Assembly (NCBI GenBank): GCA_017532425.1
Contig: JAFXJH010000019.1
Span: 1,029-65,028, forward strand
Origin: Clostridia bacterium
GTDB taxonomy: Bacteria; Bacillota; Clostridia; Oscillospirales; CAG-272
Length of the DNA stretch: 64,000 nucleotides
Reading direction: 5' to 3'
The position numbers and the translations under genes were made by a program. How positions within the stretch are numbered: position 1 is the stretch's first letter; each line of letters begins with the position of its first letter. The notes under the pieces are model-generated. The model was given only the letters and a program-made list of their open reading frames with translations, was not told the origin of the DNA and did no database searches. Shown here piece after piece: positions 2,897 through 63,958 of the stretch.

Positions 2897-5785
2897 ATGA
2901 AATTAAAACAGCTTATCTGCTTTTCGTGGAATGAAGAGGATAAAGTAAAAGGCTTTCATGTTTTTGCGCAAAGCAAGGGAATAGACGAGCGCGATATATA
3001 CGCGATAGCATCCCGCCTTGCATATCGCCCGTCGGATAATCTTACCTCCGAAACGGTCAAAAATCTTGCTGAAACGTCAAGACTTCTCGGATATCCGAAA
3101 AAAGGCGATAACGGACTTCATTTTGCGGTACAGCGCGAAATAGATTCGACATTCCCTACAGACTGCGCGTTCTTTACACTTCCGTCGGGTCTGCTTTGCT
3201 GTGCAAAGGTTACTTATTGCGGCGTCGATTATCGACTTAACGTATGGGGAAACTATATAATTCACGCGTATATCTTCTCGTATGACCCTAAAATATCCCC
3301 TGCGTCGATACTGCTCTCACAGAAATTCAAAACGCACCTCACGGCAGATGATCTCAAACCGTCAAGAACACAGCCGTATATTCCCGAAATAGAGATAACA
3401 GAGCCGCTCTCTAACGTAGATGCACTTGCGAAGCTTGTAAAAGCAAGAGGCGCGGGTACTCTTTCAAGAATTCTTGACTGCGTTTTTGCCGCAGTAAGAA
3501 GAGATATGGACATATATATAAACGCGCCCGAAAAGGATATCCTCTTCTGGATGCTTGCCTGCGAAACTCTGCTTCCGCACGATATAACGATGCTCCTTTC
3601 CTTCTCGACCTGTCGCTTTTCTCAGGAGGATGGCTCACCATTCAGAATAAAGCATATAATTTCAAAGCTCGGAAGTCATTATGCGTACAAGCTTTCGTCT
3701 TCCGATAACACGCATATATCTATCGACCCCAAAAACGCGATATTCTCGGATAGCGCAAGTAAGCTTCAGCTTTCGGGACTTATCACCTGCTTGCTTCTTA
3801 CTGCACCCGAGGAAATAGAGGTCATACGCTCGCTTATAGGTACTTACGTAAAGACGCACGGTGTAATCGATTCGGACGAGATATGTCTGATATATCGCCT
3901 TGCGCGTACAGATATATACGACGGAATATCCGAAATAGAGCTGTGCGAGACCTTAAAGGACGTCGTTCTTCGCTCGTTCGGATACGATACGGTCGATAAG
4001 GTGATCGAAAAATATCTCGCCACGACGGCGGACGGATCTTTTAAAATAAAGCTCTACGGTCATCTTGCGGCATATCATTCGCGCCCCGAGCAGATAATGA
4101 CGAATATGTTTTACCGTATAATGCGCGAGCTTTCGGACGGTAGGATGACGGCTGCAGAGGCGCTTGATAAGCTCTTTGAAGAGCCGTTTGGAAAAGAAAC
4201 GGTAAAATATATTATAGATACCCTTGACACAAGATACGAGCTCTTTGAGTTCGGAATGTCTGAGGGAACTACAAGAAGCTTTATATATAAGCTGCTTTTC
4301 TCGGGATTTTACGATCTCAAGGAAGAGGGCTCCGCCGATATGCTCATAAGGCTTATACCGGCGGCTGTGAAATATGAATCGGAAAGAGATAACAGCGTTC
4401 CCGAATGTATCACAGAGCTTATCGCGGTGGTTGAATTTGACGAGAGTATATACCGCAGAGTCATATACGGATACTATGATTATTGCCGCTCGGATCTTAA
4501 AGAATTTGTGGGATGGTGCGGACTTATAACTCTTCTTTTCGAGCAGGGAAGAAAGCTCAATTCGGAGGCGGGGATCACCACCTTTATAATAAGAGAGCTT
4601 GAACACGGAAGCCTGCTTGAATATATGAAGACGGGAAGCGAAGAGACGGTGACCGTGCTCACCCTTCTTTCGATGCTTCGCAGATGCGGTGCGCTGTCCG
4701 AAAAGGCTCACGCGAATTTTATATACGATAAATTCAGAGATTTTCTCAGATATTCTGCTGATTGCGACGTGATCTCTCTTGTTATAGACGGTCTGAAAAA
4801 CGAAAATGAAAGACTTGTGGAGGCTCTTTCGCAGTATTCCGGGGCGGATAAGGGTCTTGCGCTTGAGGTTTATAAAAACAAGGTCAGCCGTACACGCTCG
4901 GCAGACAAAAATCTGCTCAGTGCGATGCACGAAAGCGATATACGATATATAGGCGAGTCAATAGTGTCGGCGCGCATAACCTCTTGGGAGAGCTTTATTT
5001 CTTACCTTAAGGATTGGTACGTAAACGGAAAATACAATAAATGCTTCCAGAGAGCGTTCCAAAGAGCATTTTCCGACTGCCTTGAAAATGAAAGCTGGTA
5101 CTTTATAAACGAAGTGTTCTCTATCTGCAAGAGTAGATTTTCGACGTCCGAAAGGGGAGATCTCGATCTTCTGATAAAGATCCTCGATACCAATATCGGC
5201 TCGTATATCGGTAAGGAAACAAATCTTCTTCAGCTGCTTTCGGATATAAAGAAGCTGAGCGGAAGCCTGCCCACGGCATTGGAGCTTGTTATCGAAACAG
5301 AGCTGACACTTATAGGAAAGAGCGATATTTTTCTCCCCGTGTCGATAAGCTTTGTTCAGACGGCAAGCGACACCTTGAAAAATACGTACGTCAAGGTGTA
5401 CGGTACACGCCTTGTAGACCTTTGCGTGGGAGCATCGGACAGCGAAACGATATCCTCGGCTGTATGGCTCGTCGTTCTTGCATCTGACGGAAATACCTTT
5501 GCAAATATCGTGAAATATATCTCGCGCCTTGCGAGCGGATCGGTCAGAATAATACTCGGAAGAGTAATTTCCGCAGGTCTTATAGATGAAGATAAGATAA
5601 AAGTCGAGAATATGATACTCTCTCTGTCGAGGACAATGAAAACGTCAGATTATCTGATGCTTCGAAAGAACGTTTCCTCAAAGCATCAGAATATAAAATA
5701 CGATATAATTTTCGACAGAGTAGAGGAAAGCTTCGGAATTATAGCAAAGCGAAAGCTTGCGCTGATGCGTAAGGATCATAAATGA
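2897..5785 (+). CDS. Large uncharacterised protein (962 aa); the N-terminal ~130 aa resemble a GAP1-N-type domain and the rest looks helical
   Basis: ATG at 2897 is preceded by GGAAAGGAGG (2875-2884); the ORF-track start at 2873 is a TTG inside that RBS. N-terminus: MKLKQLICFSW..KGFHVFAQSKGI..FPTDCAFFTLPSG..YCGVDYRLNVWGNYIIHAYIF. No P-loop, HExxH, DEAD or other catalytic motif was recognised by eye. Confidence 0.6.
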   Translation: MKLKQLICFSWNEEDKVKGFHVFAQSKGIDERDIYAIASRLAYRPSDNLTSETVKNLAETSRLLGYPKKGDNGLHFAVQREIDSTFPTDCAFFTLPSGLLCCAKVTYCGVDYRLNVWGNYIIHAYIFSYDPKISPASILLSQKFKTHLTADDLKPSRTQPYIPEIEITEPLSNVDALAKLVKARGAGTLSRILDCVFAAVRRDMDIYINAPEKDILFWMLACETLLPHDITMLLSFSTCRFSQEDGSPFRIKHIISKLGSHYAYKLSSSDNTHISIDPKNAIFSDSASKLQLSGLITCLLLTAPEEIEVIRSLIGTYVKTHGVIDSDEICLIYRLARTDIYDGISEIELCETLKDVVLRSFGYDTVDKVIEKYLATTADGSFKIKLYGHLAAYHSRPEQIMTNMFYRIMRELSDGRMTAAEALDKLFEEPFGKETVKYIIDTLDTRYELFEFGMSEGTTRSFIYKLLFSGFYDLKEEGSADMLIRLIPAAVKYESERDNSVPECITELIAVVEFDESIYRRVIYGYYDYCRSDLKEFVGWCGLITLLFEQGRKLNSEAGITTFIIRELEHGSLLEYMKTGSEETVTVLTLLSMLRRCGALSEKAHANFIYDKFRDFLRYSADCDVISLVIDGLKNENERLVEALSQYSGADKGLALEVYKNKVSRTRSADKNLLSAMHESDIRYIGESIVSARITSWESFISYLKDWYVNGKYNKCFQRAFQRAFSDCLENESWYFINEVFSICKSRFSTSERGDLDLLIKILDTNIGSYIGKETNLLQLLSDIKKLSGSLPTALELVIETELTLIGKSDIFLPVSISFVQTASDTLKNTYVKVYGTRLVDLCVGASDSETISSAVWLVVLASDGNTFANIVKYISRLASGSVRIILGRVISAGLIDEDKIKVENMILSLSRTMKTSDYLMLRKNVSSKHQNIKYDIIFDRVEESFGIIAKRKLALMRKDHK

Positions 5786-22579: not shown

Positions 22580-22597
22580 GAGAATTTTCAAACAAAA

Positions 22598-22958
22598 CAC
22601 CGTCATATCAAACGATACGACGGTGCGTAGGAAGACAAAATATTTTAGAAAATCCGGTAGCCAAGGAAAGGGGATTGGAGTCTGAGGAAAGGGGAAAAAC
22701 TTCGGCGTTTGAGATGGTTTTTCCCTTTCCTCAGTCAAACAGAACGATTTTGTCTGCATTTTACACCGTCATATCAAACGATATGACGGTACGTACGGAA
22801 GACAAAATATTTTAGAAAATCCGGTAGCCAAGGAATGGGGGTAGGAGTCTGAGAAAAGGGAAAAAACTTCGGCATTTGAGATGGTTTTTCCCATTCCTCA
22901 GTCAAACAGAACGATTTTGTCTACATTTTATACCGTCATATCAAACGATATGACGGTA
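22598..22958. repeat. 166-167-nt structured tandem repeat (2 full units plus a third copy of the leading hairpin)
   Basis: The hairpin ACCGTCATAT-caaacg-ATATGACGGT occurs at 22598-22625, 22765-22790 and 22931-22958. Each unit also has a closing stem AGACAAAAT/ATTTTGTCT and internal GGGAAAAAC/GTTTTTCCC hairpins. Confidence 0.85.
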
Positions 22959-53744: not shown

Positions 53745-54524
53745 ATGGGAAGAATGCTCGGAGCTTTCGATTCGGATAATGACAACGATCGTCCCGATCT
53801 TAATAAATGCCCCGATTGCGGATGCTTTTTCGCGCAGGACAACTGTCCTCTTTGCGGAAAGCTTTGCCCCGAGGAAATGAGAGCGGGCAACCGCAAGGCT
53901 GTAAAGGCAAAGAAAAAAAGAGGCGGATATTCTTCGGGCAGGGTGACCTTTGTCGAGTGGTATCACAGCTGGTGGTTTATCATTCTTATGATGCTCGTTA
54001 TGCCTATCGTGGGTATAATCCTGCTTATCACAAGTCCGCATAAAAAATCGCTCAAGATAGCCCTTATCGCGGTAGCCGTTCTTATAGCTATGCTTCCGAC
54101 GATACTGTTCGCAGTGTACGGCTTTTTGCTTAGTACCTTTGACAGTCCGATCGATACGTCAAAAAGCAGGGAAGAATATATCGAAGCGTGCCAAAGCGTG
54201 GACGCAGAGGAATATTACCGTATGGCGGATACTTATACGGGAAAATTCGTTTCGATAACCCTGAAGATCAAGGAAAAATTCACGGACGGCGATGCTTACA
54301 CGGGTGATAAGTACACTACGCATTACCTTTGCACGGATACGGACGGAAAAGAACTTCGCTTCATAATAAGAGACTGTATTCAGGACGGCTCGCAGAACTT
54401 TATCGCAGGCGACGTTATAACCGTTTACGGCGAGGGTGCGGGAAATTATTCGGTTTACGATGAAAATTACGATCTCCGTAGCGCTCCCGGAATCTTCGTG
54501 GCGTACGTTAAGATCGTGGAATGA
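53745..54524 (+). CDS. Zinc-ribbon membrane protein, unknown function
   Basis: N-terminal CPDCGCFFAQDNCPLCGKLCP, then two TM helices, then an ~130-aa extracytoplasmic domain. Confidence 0.6.
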   Translation: MGRMLGAFDSDNDNDRPDLNKCPDCGCFFAQDNCPLCGKLCPEEMRAGNRKAVKAKKKRGGYSSGRVTFVEWYHSWWFIILMMLVMPIVGIILLITSPHKKSLKIALIAVAVLIAMLPTILFAVYGFLLSTFDSPIDTSKSREEYIEACQSVDAEEYYRMADTYTGKFVSITLKIKEKFTDGDAYTGDKYTTHYLCTDTDGKELRFIIRDCIQDGSQNFIAGDVITVYGEGAGNYSVYDENYDLRSAPGIFVAYVKIVE

Positions 54525-54569: not shown

Positions 54570-54573
54570 CTTT

Positions 54574-54866
54574 GTCGGAAACCCTTTTTTCAAAAAGGGT
54601 TTCCGACACCTTCCCAAAAACTTTACTGAAAAAGAAAGAAGAGACTTTTTTTAAGAAAAGTTTTTGGAGTTCCAAGAACCTTTTTTCAAAAAGCTCCTTT
54701 GCGTTTTTTGCAAAGTTTTTTGGGGAAGATAATCCCCTCTCACCTGCTTCGCAGGAGCTCTCCTGAAGGGAGAGCCTTCAAGTTTTTATTTTCAGCAAAG
54801 TTTTTGGAGTTCCAAGAACCTTTTTTCAAAAAGGTTCTTGGCAGGATCCAAGGACAGAGTCCTTGG
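54574..54866. repeat. Hairpin-module repeat cluster, locus A
   Basis: Perfect hairpins at 54574-54607 (16 bp), 54812-54841 (14 bp) and 54848-54866 (8 bp). An exact 37-nt repeat occurs at 54657-54693 and 54797-54833. Linkers at 54614-54633 and 54789-54807 are inverted copies of each other. Confidence 0.85.
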
Positions 54867-54868
54867 CG

Positions 54869-55963
54869 TTACTTCAGAATTTCAAGTAAGATCTTTGCAG
54901 CTTCGCGCATAGTGAGCTCGCCGTCGGAAATGCCTGATACGCTTATCGATTCCTTGCAGATATACGAAGCCATTTCGAGCGCCTTGGCAGAGGTGAGAAT
55001 ATCGATCTCAGAGTCGGATATTTCGCCGAAAACAGAGATAACGTCGTTCTCGTCGTCGGGAAGAGAAAGTCCGGCGGCAGCCATAGCCATTATGGCAAAT
55101 TCGTCATAGGAAACAGCCTTATCGGGCTCAAAATAGCTGTATTTTCCGATAGTTTTTCCGACGTAGATGCCCTTGTCGGCAAGGAGAAGAGCATCGTATT
55201 TGAATTCGCTTCCGAGGTCAACGTAGCTGATGGTGGGCGCTTTTTTTACGTCAAGCGATACGCTTATGATATCGGACGCGTTGCCGTAGCAGTCGGTCAC
55301 AATATAGGAAAAAGAATCCTCGCCCACGGCGTTTTTGTCGGGAGTATAGACAAATTTTCCGCTTGACGGATCATCGAGAGTGAGCTTCCCGTGAGAGGGG
55401 CGAGATACGATAGAAAAGGTGACGCTGTCGCCGTCGGGGTCGCGCGCGGAGAGATAGTCAATGCGGTCAATTCCCGCGTAGGCGGATACCACCTTCGAGG
55501 ATGCGCTCGGCGCAAAGTTGAGAGTGTCGGTGAATTTTATCGTGCAATCGATAACACGGGGATATCCCGAGGAGATGCATCCGAAAACGAAGGAGGCATC
55601 GTCTACAGACTCGCTTGCAGGGATAAATACCAGCTTTGAGAGCTTGCTTCGGGGGATTATCTGATTTGCAAGGACGGGCACTTTGCCGAGCATAAGCTTT
55701 CCGTCGGCAGAATCGGGAAGAATAAGGATAGTTATGCTGGCAAGACGGGAGCTGCCGATACATTCTTCAAATTCGTCGGTGTCAAAGCTTACTCGGCTTC
55801 CGCGCATGCCGTTTTTGGTGAAGACCGTGTTTTGCGCAAGATTGTCAATAGCGGGTGAAAGACTTTCCTTGGCGTGAGCGGCACACGGGATGATGAGAGC
55901 GCTGAAAATAAGCGAGATAAAAATAATTGAGGTCAGAATTTTGAATAAACGGGATTTTTTCAT
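54869..55963 (-). CDS. Secreted protein with cadherin-like/Ig-like domain and a possible SLH-like C-terminus
   Basis: Signal peptide MKKSRLFKILTSIIFISLIFSALIIPCAAHA. Contains DPDGDSVTFSIVSRPSHGKLTLDDPSSGKFVYTPDKNAVGEDSFSYIVTD. The C-terminal FEPDKAVSYDEFAIMAMAAAGL resembles an SLH motif. Confidence 0.6.
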   Translation of the reverse strand: MKKSRLFKILTSIIFISLIFSALIIPCAAHAKESLSPAIDNLAQNTVFTKNGMRGSRVSFDTDEFEECIGSSRLASITILILPDSADGKLMLGKVPVLANQIIPRSKLSKLVFIPASESVDDASFVFGCISSGYPRVIDCTIKFTDTLNFAPSASSKVVSAYAGIDRIDYLSARDPDGDSVTFSIVSRPSHGKLTLDDPSSGKFVYTPDKNAVGEDSFSYIVTDCYGNASDIISVSLDVKKAPTISYVDLGSEFKYDALLLADKGIYVGKTIGKYSYFEPDKAVSYDEFAIMAMAAAGLSLPDDENDVISVFGEISDSEIDILTSAKALEMASYICKESISVSGISDGELTMREAAKILLEILK

Positions 55964-61256: not shown

Positions 61257-62543
61257 ATGGAAAAGATAGTTATTAACGGCTCAAGGCCGCTTAACGGTGA
61301 AATTGAAATAGGCGGAATGAAAAACGGAGCACTTCCGATAATATTCGCCGCACTCCTTGTAACGAAGGGTGTTTCTGTTATAGAAAATCTGCCCGCTGTC
61401 AAGGACATCGATCTTTCTCTTGAAATAATAGAAAGCCTCGGTGCAAAGGTAGACCGCATAGATAAGCATACCGCAAGAATAGACGCAACGTCGGTAAAGG
61501 TGTCCGAGCCTCCGGCATCTCTTGTGAGAAAGATGAGAGCATCCTATTATCTTCTCGGAGCAGAGCTCGGAAGATTCGGTGAGGCTGTCGTTCAGTATCC
61601 GGGCGGATGCGATTTCGGCGGACGTCCGATAGACAGACATATCAAGGGCTTCGAAACCCTCGGTGCAACGGTTACGGAAACCTTCTCTGAAAGCGGAAAA
61701 TGCGTAAGAGCTGTGACCGAGGGCGGTGTTGTCGGAGCAAACGTCTTCTTTGATGACGTTTCGGTCGGTGCAACCATAAACGTAATGCTCGCCGCGGTTA
61801 CCGCCAAGGGTCTTACAATAATTGAAAACGCTGCAAGAGAGCCTCACGTTGTTGACCTTGCAAACTTCCTCAATACCTGCGGCGCAAAGGTAATGGGCGC
61901 GGGTACTCCCACTATAAAGATAACCGGAGTCGATAAAAACGAGCTCCACGGATGTACATATACGGTCGTTCCCGATATGATAGAGGCGGGCACTTATATG
62001 GTGGCAGCCGCCGCAACGGGTGGAAGCGTACTCATAAAGAACGTTATCCCGAAGCACCTTGAAGCAACCTCTACAAAGCTCGCCGAGATGGGCGTTAAGA
62101 TAGTGGAAAATGACGACAGCGTCGAGGTCAGCGTTCCGTCGGGACTTAACGCAACCAATATCAAGACTCTTCCGTATCCGGGTATCCCGACCGATATGCA
62201 GCCTCAGTTCTGCGTGCTTATGTGCGTTGCAAACGGTGTAAGTAAGCTCGTAGAGGGTGTTTTCGACAACAGATTCCAGTACGTCGATCAGCTCAGAAAT
62301 ATGGGTGCTTCCATCGAAGTAAACGGTCGCGTGGCTACTATAAGCGGCGGATCGCCTCTTTACGGCGCAGCTGTCAATGCATCCGACCTCAGAGCGGGCG
62401 CGGCTATGATAATCGCGGGACTTGCCGCTAACGGAAAGACAGAAATTGAAAATATCAATTATATTAACCGCGGTTATGAGGATATAGTTGAAAAGCTTTC
62501 GGCTGTCGGAGCAGATATCGCTCTTGTAAACGTAGAAGACTAA
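61257..62543 (+). CDS. murA: UDP-N-acetylglucosamine 1-carboxyvinyltransferase
   Basis: 428 aa. Contains GGMKNGALPIIFAALL, active-site loop YPGGCDFGGRPIDRH, and PYPGIPTDMQPQF. Confidence 0.95.
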   Translation: MEKIVINGSRPLNGEIEIGGMKNGALPIIFAALLVTKGVSVIENLPAVKDIDLSLEIIESLGAKVDRIDKHTARIDATSVKVSEPPASLVRKMRASYYLLGAELGRFGEAVVQYPGGCDFGGRPIDRHIKGFETLGATVTETFSESGKCVRAVTEGGVVGANVFFDDVSVGATINVMLAAVTAKGLTIIENAAREPHVVDLANFLNTCGAKVMGAGTPTIKITGVDKNELHGCTYTVVPDMIEAGTYMVAAAATGGSVLIKNVIPKHLEATSTKLAEMGVKIVENDDSVEVSVPSGLNATNIKTLPYPGIPTDMQPQFCVLMCVANGVSKLVEGVFDNRFQYVDQLRNMGASIEVNGRVATISGGSPLYGAAVNASDLRAGAAMIIAGLAANGKTEIENINYINRGYEDIVEKLSAVGADIALVNVED

Positions 62544-62572
62544 AAAATCCGGAGCTTGCTCCGGATTTTTTG
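62542..62572 (+). terminator. Rho-independent terminator of murA
   Basis: AAAAAATCCGGAG, loop cttg, CTCCGGATTTTTT. Confidence 0.85.
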
Positions 62573-62576
62573 GCAA

Positions 62577-62863
62577 AGGGAACTTTTTGGAAAAAGTTCC
62601 CTCTGCACACCCTCAAAAACTTTGCTGAAAAGAAGAATTTTAGGGGCGAAATTTATGGGCAGTACCATTAGTTTTTTTCTTTAATAAAGTTTCTTGAAAT
62701 TCCTAGGAACTTTTTGAAAAAAAGTTCCCTCCGGACTCCTTCAAAAGCTTTGCAGAAAAGAAAAAATCATATTGAAGTCTACAAATCGCCCCTTTACTTT
62801 TTGTCTTTCCTTTTGAGAAAAGTTTTTGAAGTTCTTAGAAACTTTTTACAAAAAGTTTCTAAG
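62577..62863. repeat. Hairpin-module repeat cluster, locus B
   Basis: Hairpins at 62577-62602 (12 bp), ~62704-62731 (imperfect) and 62834-62863 (14 bp). The linkers are homologous to those of locus A. Confidence 0.85.
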
Positions 62864-62987
62864 CGGGATCCAAGGGCAGAGCCCTTGGCGGGATTCAAGG
62901 GCAGAGCCCTTGGCGGGATTCAAGGGCAGAGCCCTTGGCGGGATTCAAGGGCAGAGTCCTTGGTGGGTTTCAGGGCAGAGCCCTGAG
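62864..62987 (+). repeat. 25-nt tandem hairpin array (4 full units plus 1 degenerate unit)
   Basis: The unit cgggatTCAAGGGCagaGCCCTTGg occurs at 62864, 62889, 62914 and 62939. A degenerate unit spans 62964-62987. The array ends 2 nt before the GAAAGGA RBS of the next gene. Confidence 0.9.
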
Positions 62988-62998
62988 AAAGGATAAAA

Positions 62999-63958
62999 AT
63001 GAGAACACTTACGGTTAATAAAAACGATGCGGGACAGAGGCTGGATAAATTTCTGTCGAAGGCAGTGCCGACGCTTCCGGGATCGCTGATGTATAAGCTC
63101 ATAAGAACGAAGAAGATAAAGGTCAACAGAAAGCGCACGGAGCATACCTATTTTCTGTGCGAGGGCGATACGGTCGAGCTGTTCATTAAAGAAGAATTTT
63201 TTGAAAATACGGTAGAAACGAGCGCGCTGAAGCTGACACCGCATATAGATATAATATACGAAGACGAAAATATAATGCTCTGCGATAAAAGAGCAGGGAT
63301 GATAGTTCATTCGGACGATAAAGAGAGCACGAATACGCTGATATCGCATATTACGGCGTATCTCTATCAGAAGGGCGAATACGATCCGAATAAAGAAAAC
63401 TCGTTTGCGCCCGCACTGTGTAACAGAATAGACAGAAATACGGGCGGAATAGTTATAGCGGCAAAAAACGCGCAGACCCTTCGTATAATGAACGAAAAGA
63501 TAAAGAACAGAGAACTTAAAAAGAAATATCTTGCCGCGGTTCACGGGATTTTCAAGGAAAAAGAAGGACTTCTGAAGGGATACCTTATAAAAGATCAGAA
63601 AACCAATACGGTAAAGGTATTTGAAGTACAGCCGAAATTCGGCGATGCGAAGAAGATAGTTACGGGATACCGCGTTGTTGCCGAAAAAAACGGTCTTTCG
63701 CTGCTTGAGGTCGACCTCATAACGGGACGTACTCATCAGATAAGAGCTCATATGTCATCGATAGGACATCCGCTGCTTGGCGATGGAAAATACGGCGTAA
63801 ACAGAGAGGATAAGCAGAGCGGATATAAATATCAGGCACTTTATTCGTATTGCCTTGAATTTTGCTTTACGGGTGACTCGGGAATACTTGAATATCTGAA
63901 TGAAAGGAAATTCGAAATAAATGAAGACAAGATCTGGTTTTGCAGAGAATTTCAGTAA
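62999..63958 (+). CDS. RluA-family pseudouridine synthase (S4 domain plus catalytic domain)
   Basis: Contains CNRIDRNTGGIVIAAK and HQIRAHMSSIGHPLLGDGKYG. Confidence 0.9.
   Translation: MRTLTVNKNDAGQRLDKFLSKAVPTLPGSLMYKLIRTKKIKVNRKRTEHTYFLCEGDTVELFIKEEFFENTVETSALKLTPHIDIIYEDENIMLCDKRAGMIVHSDDKESTNTLISHITAYLYQKGEYDPNKENSFAPALCNRIDRNTGGIVIAAKNAQTLRIMNEKIKNRELKKKYLAAVHGIFKEKEGLLKGYLIKDQKTNTVKVFEVQPKFGDAKKIVTGYRVVAEKNGLSLLEVDLITGRTHQIRAHMSSIGHPLLGDGKYGVNREDKQSGYKYQALYSYCLEFCFTGDSGILEYLNERKFEINEDKIWFCREFQ

Follow-up and report, generated by a model that had tools for sequence, protein, structure and literature searches.

The tandem array of 25-nt hairpin units that ends at the ribosome-binding site of an rluA gene in this Clostridia genome is most probably the 3′ part of a REP/BIME- or BOX-like intergenic mosaic repeat that has undergone local tandem amplification. 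The element is modular and dispersed, is present at some orthologous sites and absent from others, and differs in copy number among relatives; its stems covary, it lies in either orientation with respect to genes, and it matches no known RNA family. It apparently belongs to a family undescribed so far, and the effect of the array on rluA expression is probably incidental.

The array lies between two genes of the window, by which we mean the whole 64,000-nt stretch of DNA that was analysed. Upstream is a murA-like gene of the UDP-N-acetylglucosamine enolpyruvyl transferase family (61257–62543, plus strand), an ORF whose orthologues carry the Pfam domain PF00275 EPSP_synthase, and downstream, after a 455-nt spacer, is the gene for an RluA-family pseudouridine synthase of 319 amino acids (62999–63958, plus strand; PF00849). 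The murA gene is followed by a terminator-type hairpin (62542–62571, plus strand) consisting of an A run, a perfect 14-bp inverted repeat and a T run, which the initial annotation had recognized and which is kept in most orthologous spacers. A promoter scan of the spacer found no sigma-70-like site at threshold, in agreement with the same annotation. A stop-free ORF of 431 amino acids on the minus strand (61281–62576) runs antisense across all of murA and is slightly longer than it; it is almost certainly not a gene.

The spacer is filled by a mosaic of about 420 nt (62577–62987) with the module order P F~F′ P F~F′ P H H H H H*, and the array is the 3′ end of this mosaic. The array does not stand alone. 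Module P is a palindrome whose centre, CTTTTT-N-AAAAAG, is constant and whose outer arms vary; its three copies lie at 62577–62602 (AGGGAACTTTTTGGAAAAAGTTCCCT), 62704–62730 and 62834–62863 (CTTAGAAACTTTTTACAAAAAGTTTCTAAG). The third copy has a predicted fold of −12.2 kcal/mol (z −6.1) and together with the first H unit makes up a conserved P–H pair. Module F (CCYTCAAAARCTTTGCWGAAAAGAA) pairs with its inverse, F′, to form long imperfect hairpins; F lies at 62603–62637 (CTGCACACCCTCAAAAACTTTGCTGAAAAGAAGAA, from direct and inverted repeat pairs) and 62731–62765, and F′ at 62663–62703 and 62795–62833, as located by repeat search, with all of these modules given on the plus strand. Module H is the 25-nt unit itself, a GCGGGWTC linker followed by a GC-rich 7-bp hairpin.

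Tandem Repeats Finder delimited the array at 62863–62984 (period 25, 4.9 copies, 93% matches, score 209), and a repeat search of the window placed its copies in register, with starts at 62863, 62888, 62913, 62938 and 62963. Both analyses bear out the original description of four near-identical units and one degenerate unit (62863–62987 in all). The four H units (62863–62962, plus strand) have the linker GCGGGATYC and the hairpin CAAGGGC-AGA-GCCCTTG; the 17-nt hairpin core, CAAGGGCAGAGCCCTTG, occurs in the array three times exactly and once with one mismatch, against a chance level of 0.11 matches at up to three mismatches in the shuffled window. A single H unit is predicted to form a 7-bp stem with a 3-nt loop, as had been proposed, at −9.8 kcal/mol as RNA and −6.8 kcal/mol as DNA, and the complementary strand of one unit is predicted to fold at −10.8 kcal/mol. 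Unit 4 (62938–62962, GGGCAGAGTCC) carries the GGGC/GTCC change that had been noted, a C-to-T change giving a G·T pair. The diverged terminal unit, H* (62963–62987, plus strand; GTGGGTTT-CAGGGC-AGA-GCCCTG-AG), is predicted to fold at −13.4 kcal/mol, and its stem is 100% identical across three species-level lineages. The array does run into the ribosome-binding site, as first described; the Shine–Dalgarno sequence GAAAGGA (62987–62993, plus strand), unpaired in the predicted fold, is separated from the ATG at 62999 by 5 nt, and not by the 7 nt originally given.

Three further metagenome assemblies (L001, L002 and L003) carry the array, assembled independently in each, and it is therefore not an assembly artefact. 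The H units are contiguous, with no unique spacers between them, and a CRISPR array was rejected because the direct repeats adjoin one another without spacers; a tRNA-like origin and riboswitch or leader readings were likewise rejected for the array. Searches against Rfam gave best scores far under threshold for the window element (E > 0.7) and nothing overlapping the element in 17 related loci. There is also very little likelihood that the region codes for a small repeat-containing protein, as might be supposed from two ORFs that cross the array (62714–62986 and 62826–62996) and from a 120-amino-acid gene called in L001 (2158–2520). Three frames are open only through the stop-free unit, the gene called in L001 overlaps the rluA start, and copies of this DNA are found in either orientation and also between genes that converge. 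Moreover, unit 2 of L001 has lost 1 nt, which puts the reading frames of the two strains out of step and would give them different peptides. On the strength of this difference in frame, the peptide-coding reading was rejected and the ORFs over the mosaic were taken to be false genes produced by stop-free repeats.

A second mosaic (54573–54866, plus strand), about 8 kb upstream of the first, has the order P, F, F′, P, extra sequence, F′, P and one H. It lies between convergent genes, 53745–54524 on the plus strand and 54869–55963 on the minus strand, with 2 nt left between it and the stop codon of the latter. Its sole H has a doubly changed, compensated stem, GGAC/GTCC, which is also found elsewhere within the family. 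These two loci are what the 64 kb of the source genome contains, so that a high copy number in that genome is an extrapolation. The remaining strong hairpins in the window are only ordinary A/T-flanked terminators. The window also contains an intergenic 167-nt tandem repeat (22597–22958; 2.2 copies, 93% identity, Tandem Repeats Finder score 638), each unit of which is edged by a perfect palindrome of 26–30 nt, ACCGTCATATCAAACGATATGACGGT, unrelated in sequence to P, F or H.

Scanning one genome per species (596 Gb) with an 18-nt H pattern, CAAGGRCAGAGYCCTTGG, returned at least 119 loci. By our own arithmetic about 70 chance matches to this pattern are expected in 596 Gb, and we accordingly discounted, as chance, the matches without the linker (about 30 among those analysed). 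Among the matches listed, most came from gut Clostridia, Ruminococcus, Oscillospiraceae and Eubacteriales metagenome-assembled genomes (MAGs), with the isolate Anaerotruncus sp. MC2020 (loci L025 and L066) in addition, and many lay no more than about 100 nt from the end of a contig, as dispersed repeats typically do. In family loci the 5′ context of the hairpin is (C/G)GGGWTC, and H is usually one of a row of hairpins, the others differing in their stems and sharing the linker and the purine-rich loop. The P–H pair (AAAGTTTT..-P-GC(R)GG(W)TC-H) was found at no fewer than 26 distinct loci in other gut Clostridia MAGs, often where a contig ends; the 26 loci have 19 different outer P stems, every one perfectly paired, and a near-constant TTCA loop. 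Some related MAGs have several hairpin clusters per 8 kb. Searches of JGI metagenome contigs returned no match to two tandem H units and none to the locus junction, sought for further alleles; tandem H arrays appear to be rare. Among plasmids and phages there was no blastn match to the 426-nt mosaic, and literature searches on REP/RAYT in Firmicutes, REP in Clostridia and MITEs in Ruminococcus/Faecalibacterium found no published description of the repeat.

Genomes of the Ruminococcus type have a third covarying hairpin just 3′ of H, T-CGCnnnC-CGCAG-GnnnGCG-AAAYC (L038, L047, L082, L085, L088, L015, L024 and L059), and the family thus holds more modules than the window shows. Another Clostridia MAG (L096, about 3090–3870) has three copies of a unit of about 250 nt, a larger tandem relative of the element, in which each unit comprises two family hairpins, then further conserved hairpins and a T run resembling that of a terminator.

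Similar hairpins also occur outside the gut Clostridia. More than 100 Pf1/Pf4-like Pseudomonas inovirus prophages have the identical 18-nt hairpin, CAAGGGCAGAGCCCTTGG; its foot is GGGATGA, and after it comes GCGGGTTC-CAAGGGG...CCCCTTGG-CCGTCGGAG (1780–1920 in L255, the Pf1-like prophage AY324828.1, and viral loci L135–L254). This hairpin lies inside the annotated C-terminal part of PA0719, which is divergent and of unknown function (PMC12328805); in a single-stranded-DNA phage this stretch may not encode protein at all and may instead be a hairpin region. Sandaracinobacter and Sphingomonas have a composite, GCAGGG..CCCTGC-CGGGTTC-H-CCGCCGGAGGC (that is, GCAGGGAAATCATTTCCCTGC-CGGGTTC-H-CCGCCGGAGGC), which occurs in inverted pairs around 400–550 nt of non-coding, internally repetitive sequence in a MITE- or REPIN-like arrangement (Sandaracinobacter neustonicus L013 1790–2230, L077 5670–6130 and L101 7260–7800; Sphingomonas L010, L046 and L056). 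Small ORFs, as of a possible transposase, were sought between the inverted hairpin clusters, and the sequence there proved to be entirely non-coding. Some Clostridia MAGs, among them high-GC ones, and Desulfobacteraceae MAGs also have the H-CCGCCGGAGGC string (L035, L074, L081 and L109).

The murA–rluA spacer is both filled and empty among relatives. The RluA and MurA proteins of the window had no exact matches, and orthologous DUF3810–murA–rluA–lnt loci were reached through RluA-family homologues. The spacer is 4 nt long and lacks the terminator in L130 (RluA 86% identical to that of the window), is about 65 nt long with only the terminator in L131 (84%), and measures about 110 nt in L129 (85%) and about 95 nt in L005 and L006 (90% and 87%). 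One relative with a 92% identical RluA (L004) has the terminator and one P-F, and a sister species (L127 and L128, also 92%) has P F~F′ P H H*. A further contig, L021, begins within the mosaic and reads F~F′ P H H*. The window has two P-F~F′ units and 4+1 H units (four H and one H*), and L001 (99%) has three P-F~F′ units and again 4+1; L002 and L003, of the same species as the window, also have 4+1 and their contigs break just 5′ of the array.

These spacers separate two parts of an earlier suggestion that the copy number of the array is variable. Between species it is, with 1+1 units in the sister species and 4+1 in the species of the window; within the species 4+1 is found in all four assemblies (of which three come from the same study), and the number that differs is that of the 132-nt P-F~F′ unit (two copies in the window, three in L001). 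By these comparisons, the array expanded recently and in this lineage, where other lineages have retained a short spacer. At the other end of rluA, the start of an lnt-like (apolipoprotein N-acyltransferase) gene, at ATG 63921, is overlapped by rluA over 38 nt (63921–63958), which together with the 4-nt murA–rluA gap of L130 (1496–1501) suggests that murA, rluA and lnt were ancestrally a single operon.

Comparison of the window with L001 indicated that the array changes quickly between strains. Identity is 99.5% for murA, 98.9% for rluA, 97.2% for rluA third codon positions and 94.4% for the array, where five substitutions and one 1-nt deletion have occurred; three of these six changes weaken stems, and stem-breaking changes in the array gather between strains at an approximately neutral rate. 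Between species, the F′-P-H-H*-Shine–Dalgarno segment is 88–91% identical, compared with 63% for rluA third codon positions. Quick change over the short term combined with a consensus kept over the long term is the pattern of a repeat family under concerted evolution or recognition selection.

The G·T pair of unit 4 had been offered as an argument for a role of the plus-strand RNA, as it would be a wobble on that strand and an A·C mismatch on the other. Taken singly, unit 4 is weak evidence: the conspecific strain L001 has a normal unit 4 and other stem lesions, so that the G·T pair is a private transition and not a conserved wobble. Pooled over the family, the argument fared better. In a census of 205 family hairpins anchored on the loop and linker, single stem mismatches read in the linker/loop orientation comprised 21 G·T and 7 A·C (two-sided binomial p of about 0.01, our own calculation). 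An earlier, broader hairpin census had given 33 of each; it was swamped by chance hairpins, and the anchored census was used in its place. The excess points to one strand being constrained while single-stranded, as DNA or RNA, and a purely double-stranded DNA repeat would leave it unexplained.

The orientation of the element to neighbouring genes is mixed. With flanking-gene orientations taken from crude ORF calls, which are sometimes wrong (the murA side was mislabelled through the 431-amino-acid antisense ORF), the gene downstream of H in low-GC loci lay on the same strand in 17 cases and on the opposite strand in 32; for P–H pairs the figures were 8 and 17. In the opposite-strand cases the element adjoins the stop codon of the gene, an arrangement about twice as common as that with a start codon. 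Given these mixed orientations, no one RNA strand is consistently transcribed with the neighbouring gene. Nor did orientation relate to local GC skew (33 versus 25, p = 0.36). The whole spacer folds alike on its two strands (−162.7 and −161.1 kcal/mol, z −7.3 and −9.8), and because the strands are equal, fold energy was dropped as a guide to the functional one.

These observations bear on the initial proposal that the array is a tuning device dedicated to the 62999 gene, a plus-strand RNA leader whose copy number, altered by slippage, would adjust read-through, mRNA stability or translation of rluA. Such a leader would account for an array that stops at an unpaired ribosome-binding site, for a spacer with no consensus promoter, for the difference in H number between species and for the unvarying H* stem, and the excess of G·T over A·C would suit an RNA. 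The layout of a hairpin followed by a Shine–Dalgarno sequence also recurs at other genes (L016, L020, L032, L034 and L036), with L020, from another MAG, having three tandem H units straight before the Shine–Dalgarno sequence and ATG. Nevertheless, the unit number is the same in all four assemblies of the species, stems are broken between strains at about the neutral rate, and both strands fold equally. Further, the same modules lie between convergent genes at 54.6 kb, the family more often abuts opposite-strand stop codons, where the mRNA would contain the complementary strand, and there are relatives (RluA 84–92% identical) in which the spacer, of 4 to about 110 nt, lacks an array. Nothing specific favours a rheostat at this locus and the behaviour of the family argues against one, and we consider the leader improbable. 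Even so, H hairpins adjoining a Shine–Dalgarno sequence at unrelated genes (at L012 as well as the five loci above) and the invariant H* stem leave room for some local function.

The intergenic mosaic repeat that we prefer has its closest likeness in the REP and BIME elements of Enterobacteria and Pseudomonas, which are associated with RAYT (TnpA_REP) transposases. REP-type elements are well studied in Proteobacteria. Common to both are short GC-rich extragenic hairpins behind a conserved single-stranded foot, dispersal between genes, clustering with other short motifs into mosaics, copy number that varies among relatives, and stems that covary while the foot is conserved. The criteria for REPs include an extragenic hairpin with a stem of at least 7 bp and a loop of 2–5 nt (PMC6006769). 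Both window copies are intergenic and those of relatives lie between ORFs, and the 7-bp stem and 3-nt loop of H fall within these limits. By contrast, the guide GT[AG]G expected 0–2 nt 5′ of the hairpin is missing: the linker is GCGGGATYC in the array and GC(R)GG(W)TC in the 26 related loci, and GTGG occurs only in the last unit, by a private change. The foot of H is thus GCGGGWTC and the hosts are Clostridia. Unlike the alternating units of BIMEs, the five H units are direct repeats, head to tail with a 25-nt period, with inverted hairpin clusters occurring in some other genomes, and P hairpins rich in AT, as well as the long inverted repeat F/F′, also belong to the mosaic.

In architecture only, the mosaic also resembles the BOX elements of Streptococcus pneumoniae (boxA-(boxB)n-boxC), modular intergenic elements of a Firmicute in which one short module has a variable tandem number and the outer modules are mutually complementary. 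BOX elements are often found near gene starts and are said to influence neighbouring genes. We saw no sequence similarity to BOX; module sizes and order differ, and the amplified module is terminal here but central in BOX. As in simple-sequence contingency loci, the phase-variable tracts upstream of genes, a tandem repeat stands beside a gene start and its number could shift by slippage; here, however, what is repeated is a structured 25-nt module from a family that is dispersed, and the H number is the same in four assemblies.

MITE-type elements (Correia in Neisseria, bcr1 in Bacillus cereus) and IS200/IS605-derived PATEs are comparable in being non-coding, in their inverted-repeat structure, in having filled and empty sites in relatives and in their co-transcription with neighbours; they differ in that the mosaic has no classic terminal inverted repeats and no recognized target duplication and grows in a modular, tandem way, not by fixed unit lengths. 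A second possibility, to which we give some weight while thinking it doubtful, is that the mosaic is a non-autonomous element of this MITE- or PATE-like kind, with hairpin ends at which an HUH transposase (IS200/IS605 or RAYT-type), specific for single strands and encoded elsewhere, would recognize one DNA strand. The tandem H units would then be by-products of repeated cleavage and rejoining, so that this reading amounts to our preferred explanation plus a mode of spread. F and F′ form long inverted repeats around variable centres, filled and empty sites exist at one locus, and the arrangement, with a covarying hairpin behind a conserved single-stranded linker, follows the logic of REPs and IS200/IS605 ends (PMC6006769). 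Strand-specific tolerance of G·T would suit recognition of one strand, the Sandaracinobacter composite forms the inverted termini of 400–550-nt non-coding elements, and the same hairpin occurs in the single-stranded-DNA Pf inoviruses. Against this, no transposase gene or other mobilizing protein was identified in the available 64 kb of source genome or in 8-kb pieces of the others, a clear target-site duplication and the canonical REP guide are absent, and the balanced orientation to GC skew reported above differs from the bias expected of elements that use the lagging-strand template.

Returning to the mosaic repeat with local tandem amplification, a plausible history can be sketched from these observations. 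The element consists of three hairpin-forming modules in fixed order, F/F′, P and H, and is dispersed in many gut Clostridia as well as in this genome. A recent ancestor would have gained it in the murA–rluA spacer, where it subsequently expanded, H growing from one to four full copies and the 132-nt P-F~F′ unit to two or three, perhaps by slipped-strand mispairing or by unequal recombination between repeats. It accepts either orientation to genes and fills intergenic space to the gene borders. The family consensus would be upheld by a sequence- and structure-specific process, either concerted evolution or recognition of one strand by some protein. Transcription of the element between murA and rluA is most likely passive, in read-through from murA or in the leader transcript of rluA; the last hairpin halts just before the unpaired ribosome-binding site, and any effect on the stability or translation of rluA mRNA would be a by-product.

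Stem covariation, the bias of G·T over A·C and conservation well above that of synonymous sites also underlie a more speculative reading that we regard as rather unlikely, in which the P–H pair is the signature of an undescribed, widespread family of gut Clostridia, one strand of which is read by some protein. The reader of the P–H hairpins may be a RAYT-like HUH enzyme or an RNA-binding factor. If this were true, the H hairpins with a GGGWT foot that are also found in Alphaproteobacteria, Acidobacteria and Pf inoviruses would point to a recognition system shared across phyla, and arrays beside ribosome-binding sites could truly modulate the genes downstream of them and be able to evolve in doing so.

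As far as rluA is concerned, the finding probably matters little. Dispersed hairpin repeats of this kind break metagenome assemblies, as in L002 and L003, which end just 5′ of the array; they spawn false gene calls, such as the 120-amino-acid 'gene' of L001, and can alter the expression of neighbours. Because the number of 132-nt units and of H units varies, the element could serve as a marker for strain typing. The family seems to be common in uncultured gut Clostridia, where recognizing it would improve annotation, and its covarying, strand-biased hairpins offer a tractable route to the protein that maintains the element.
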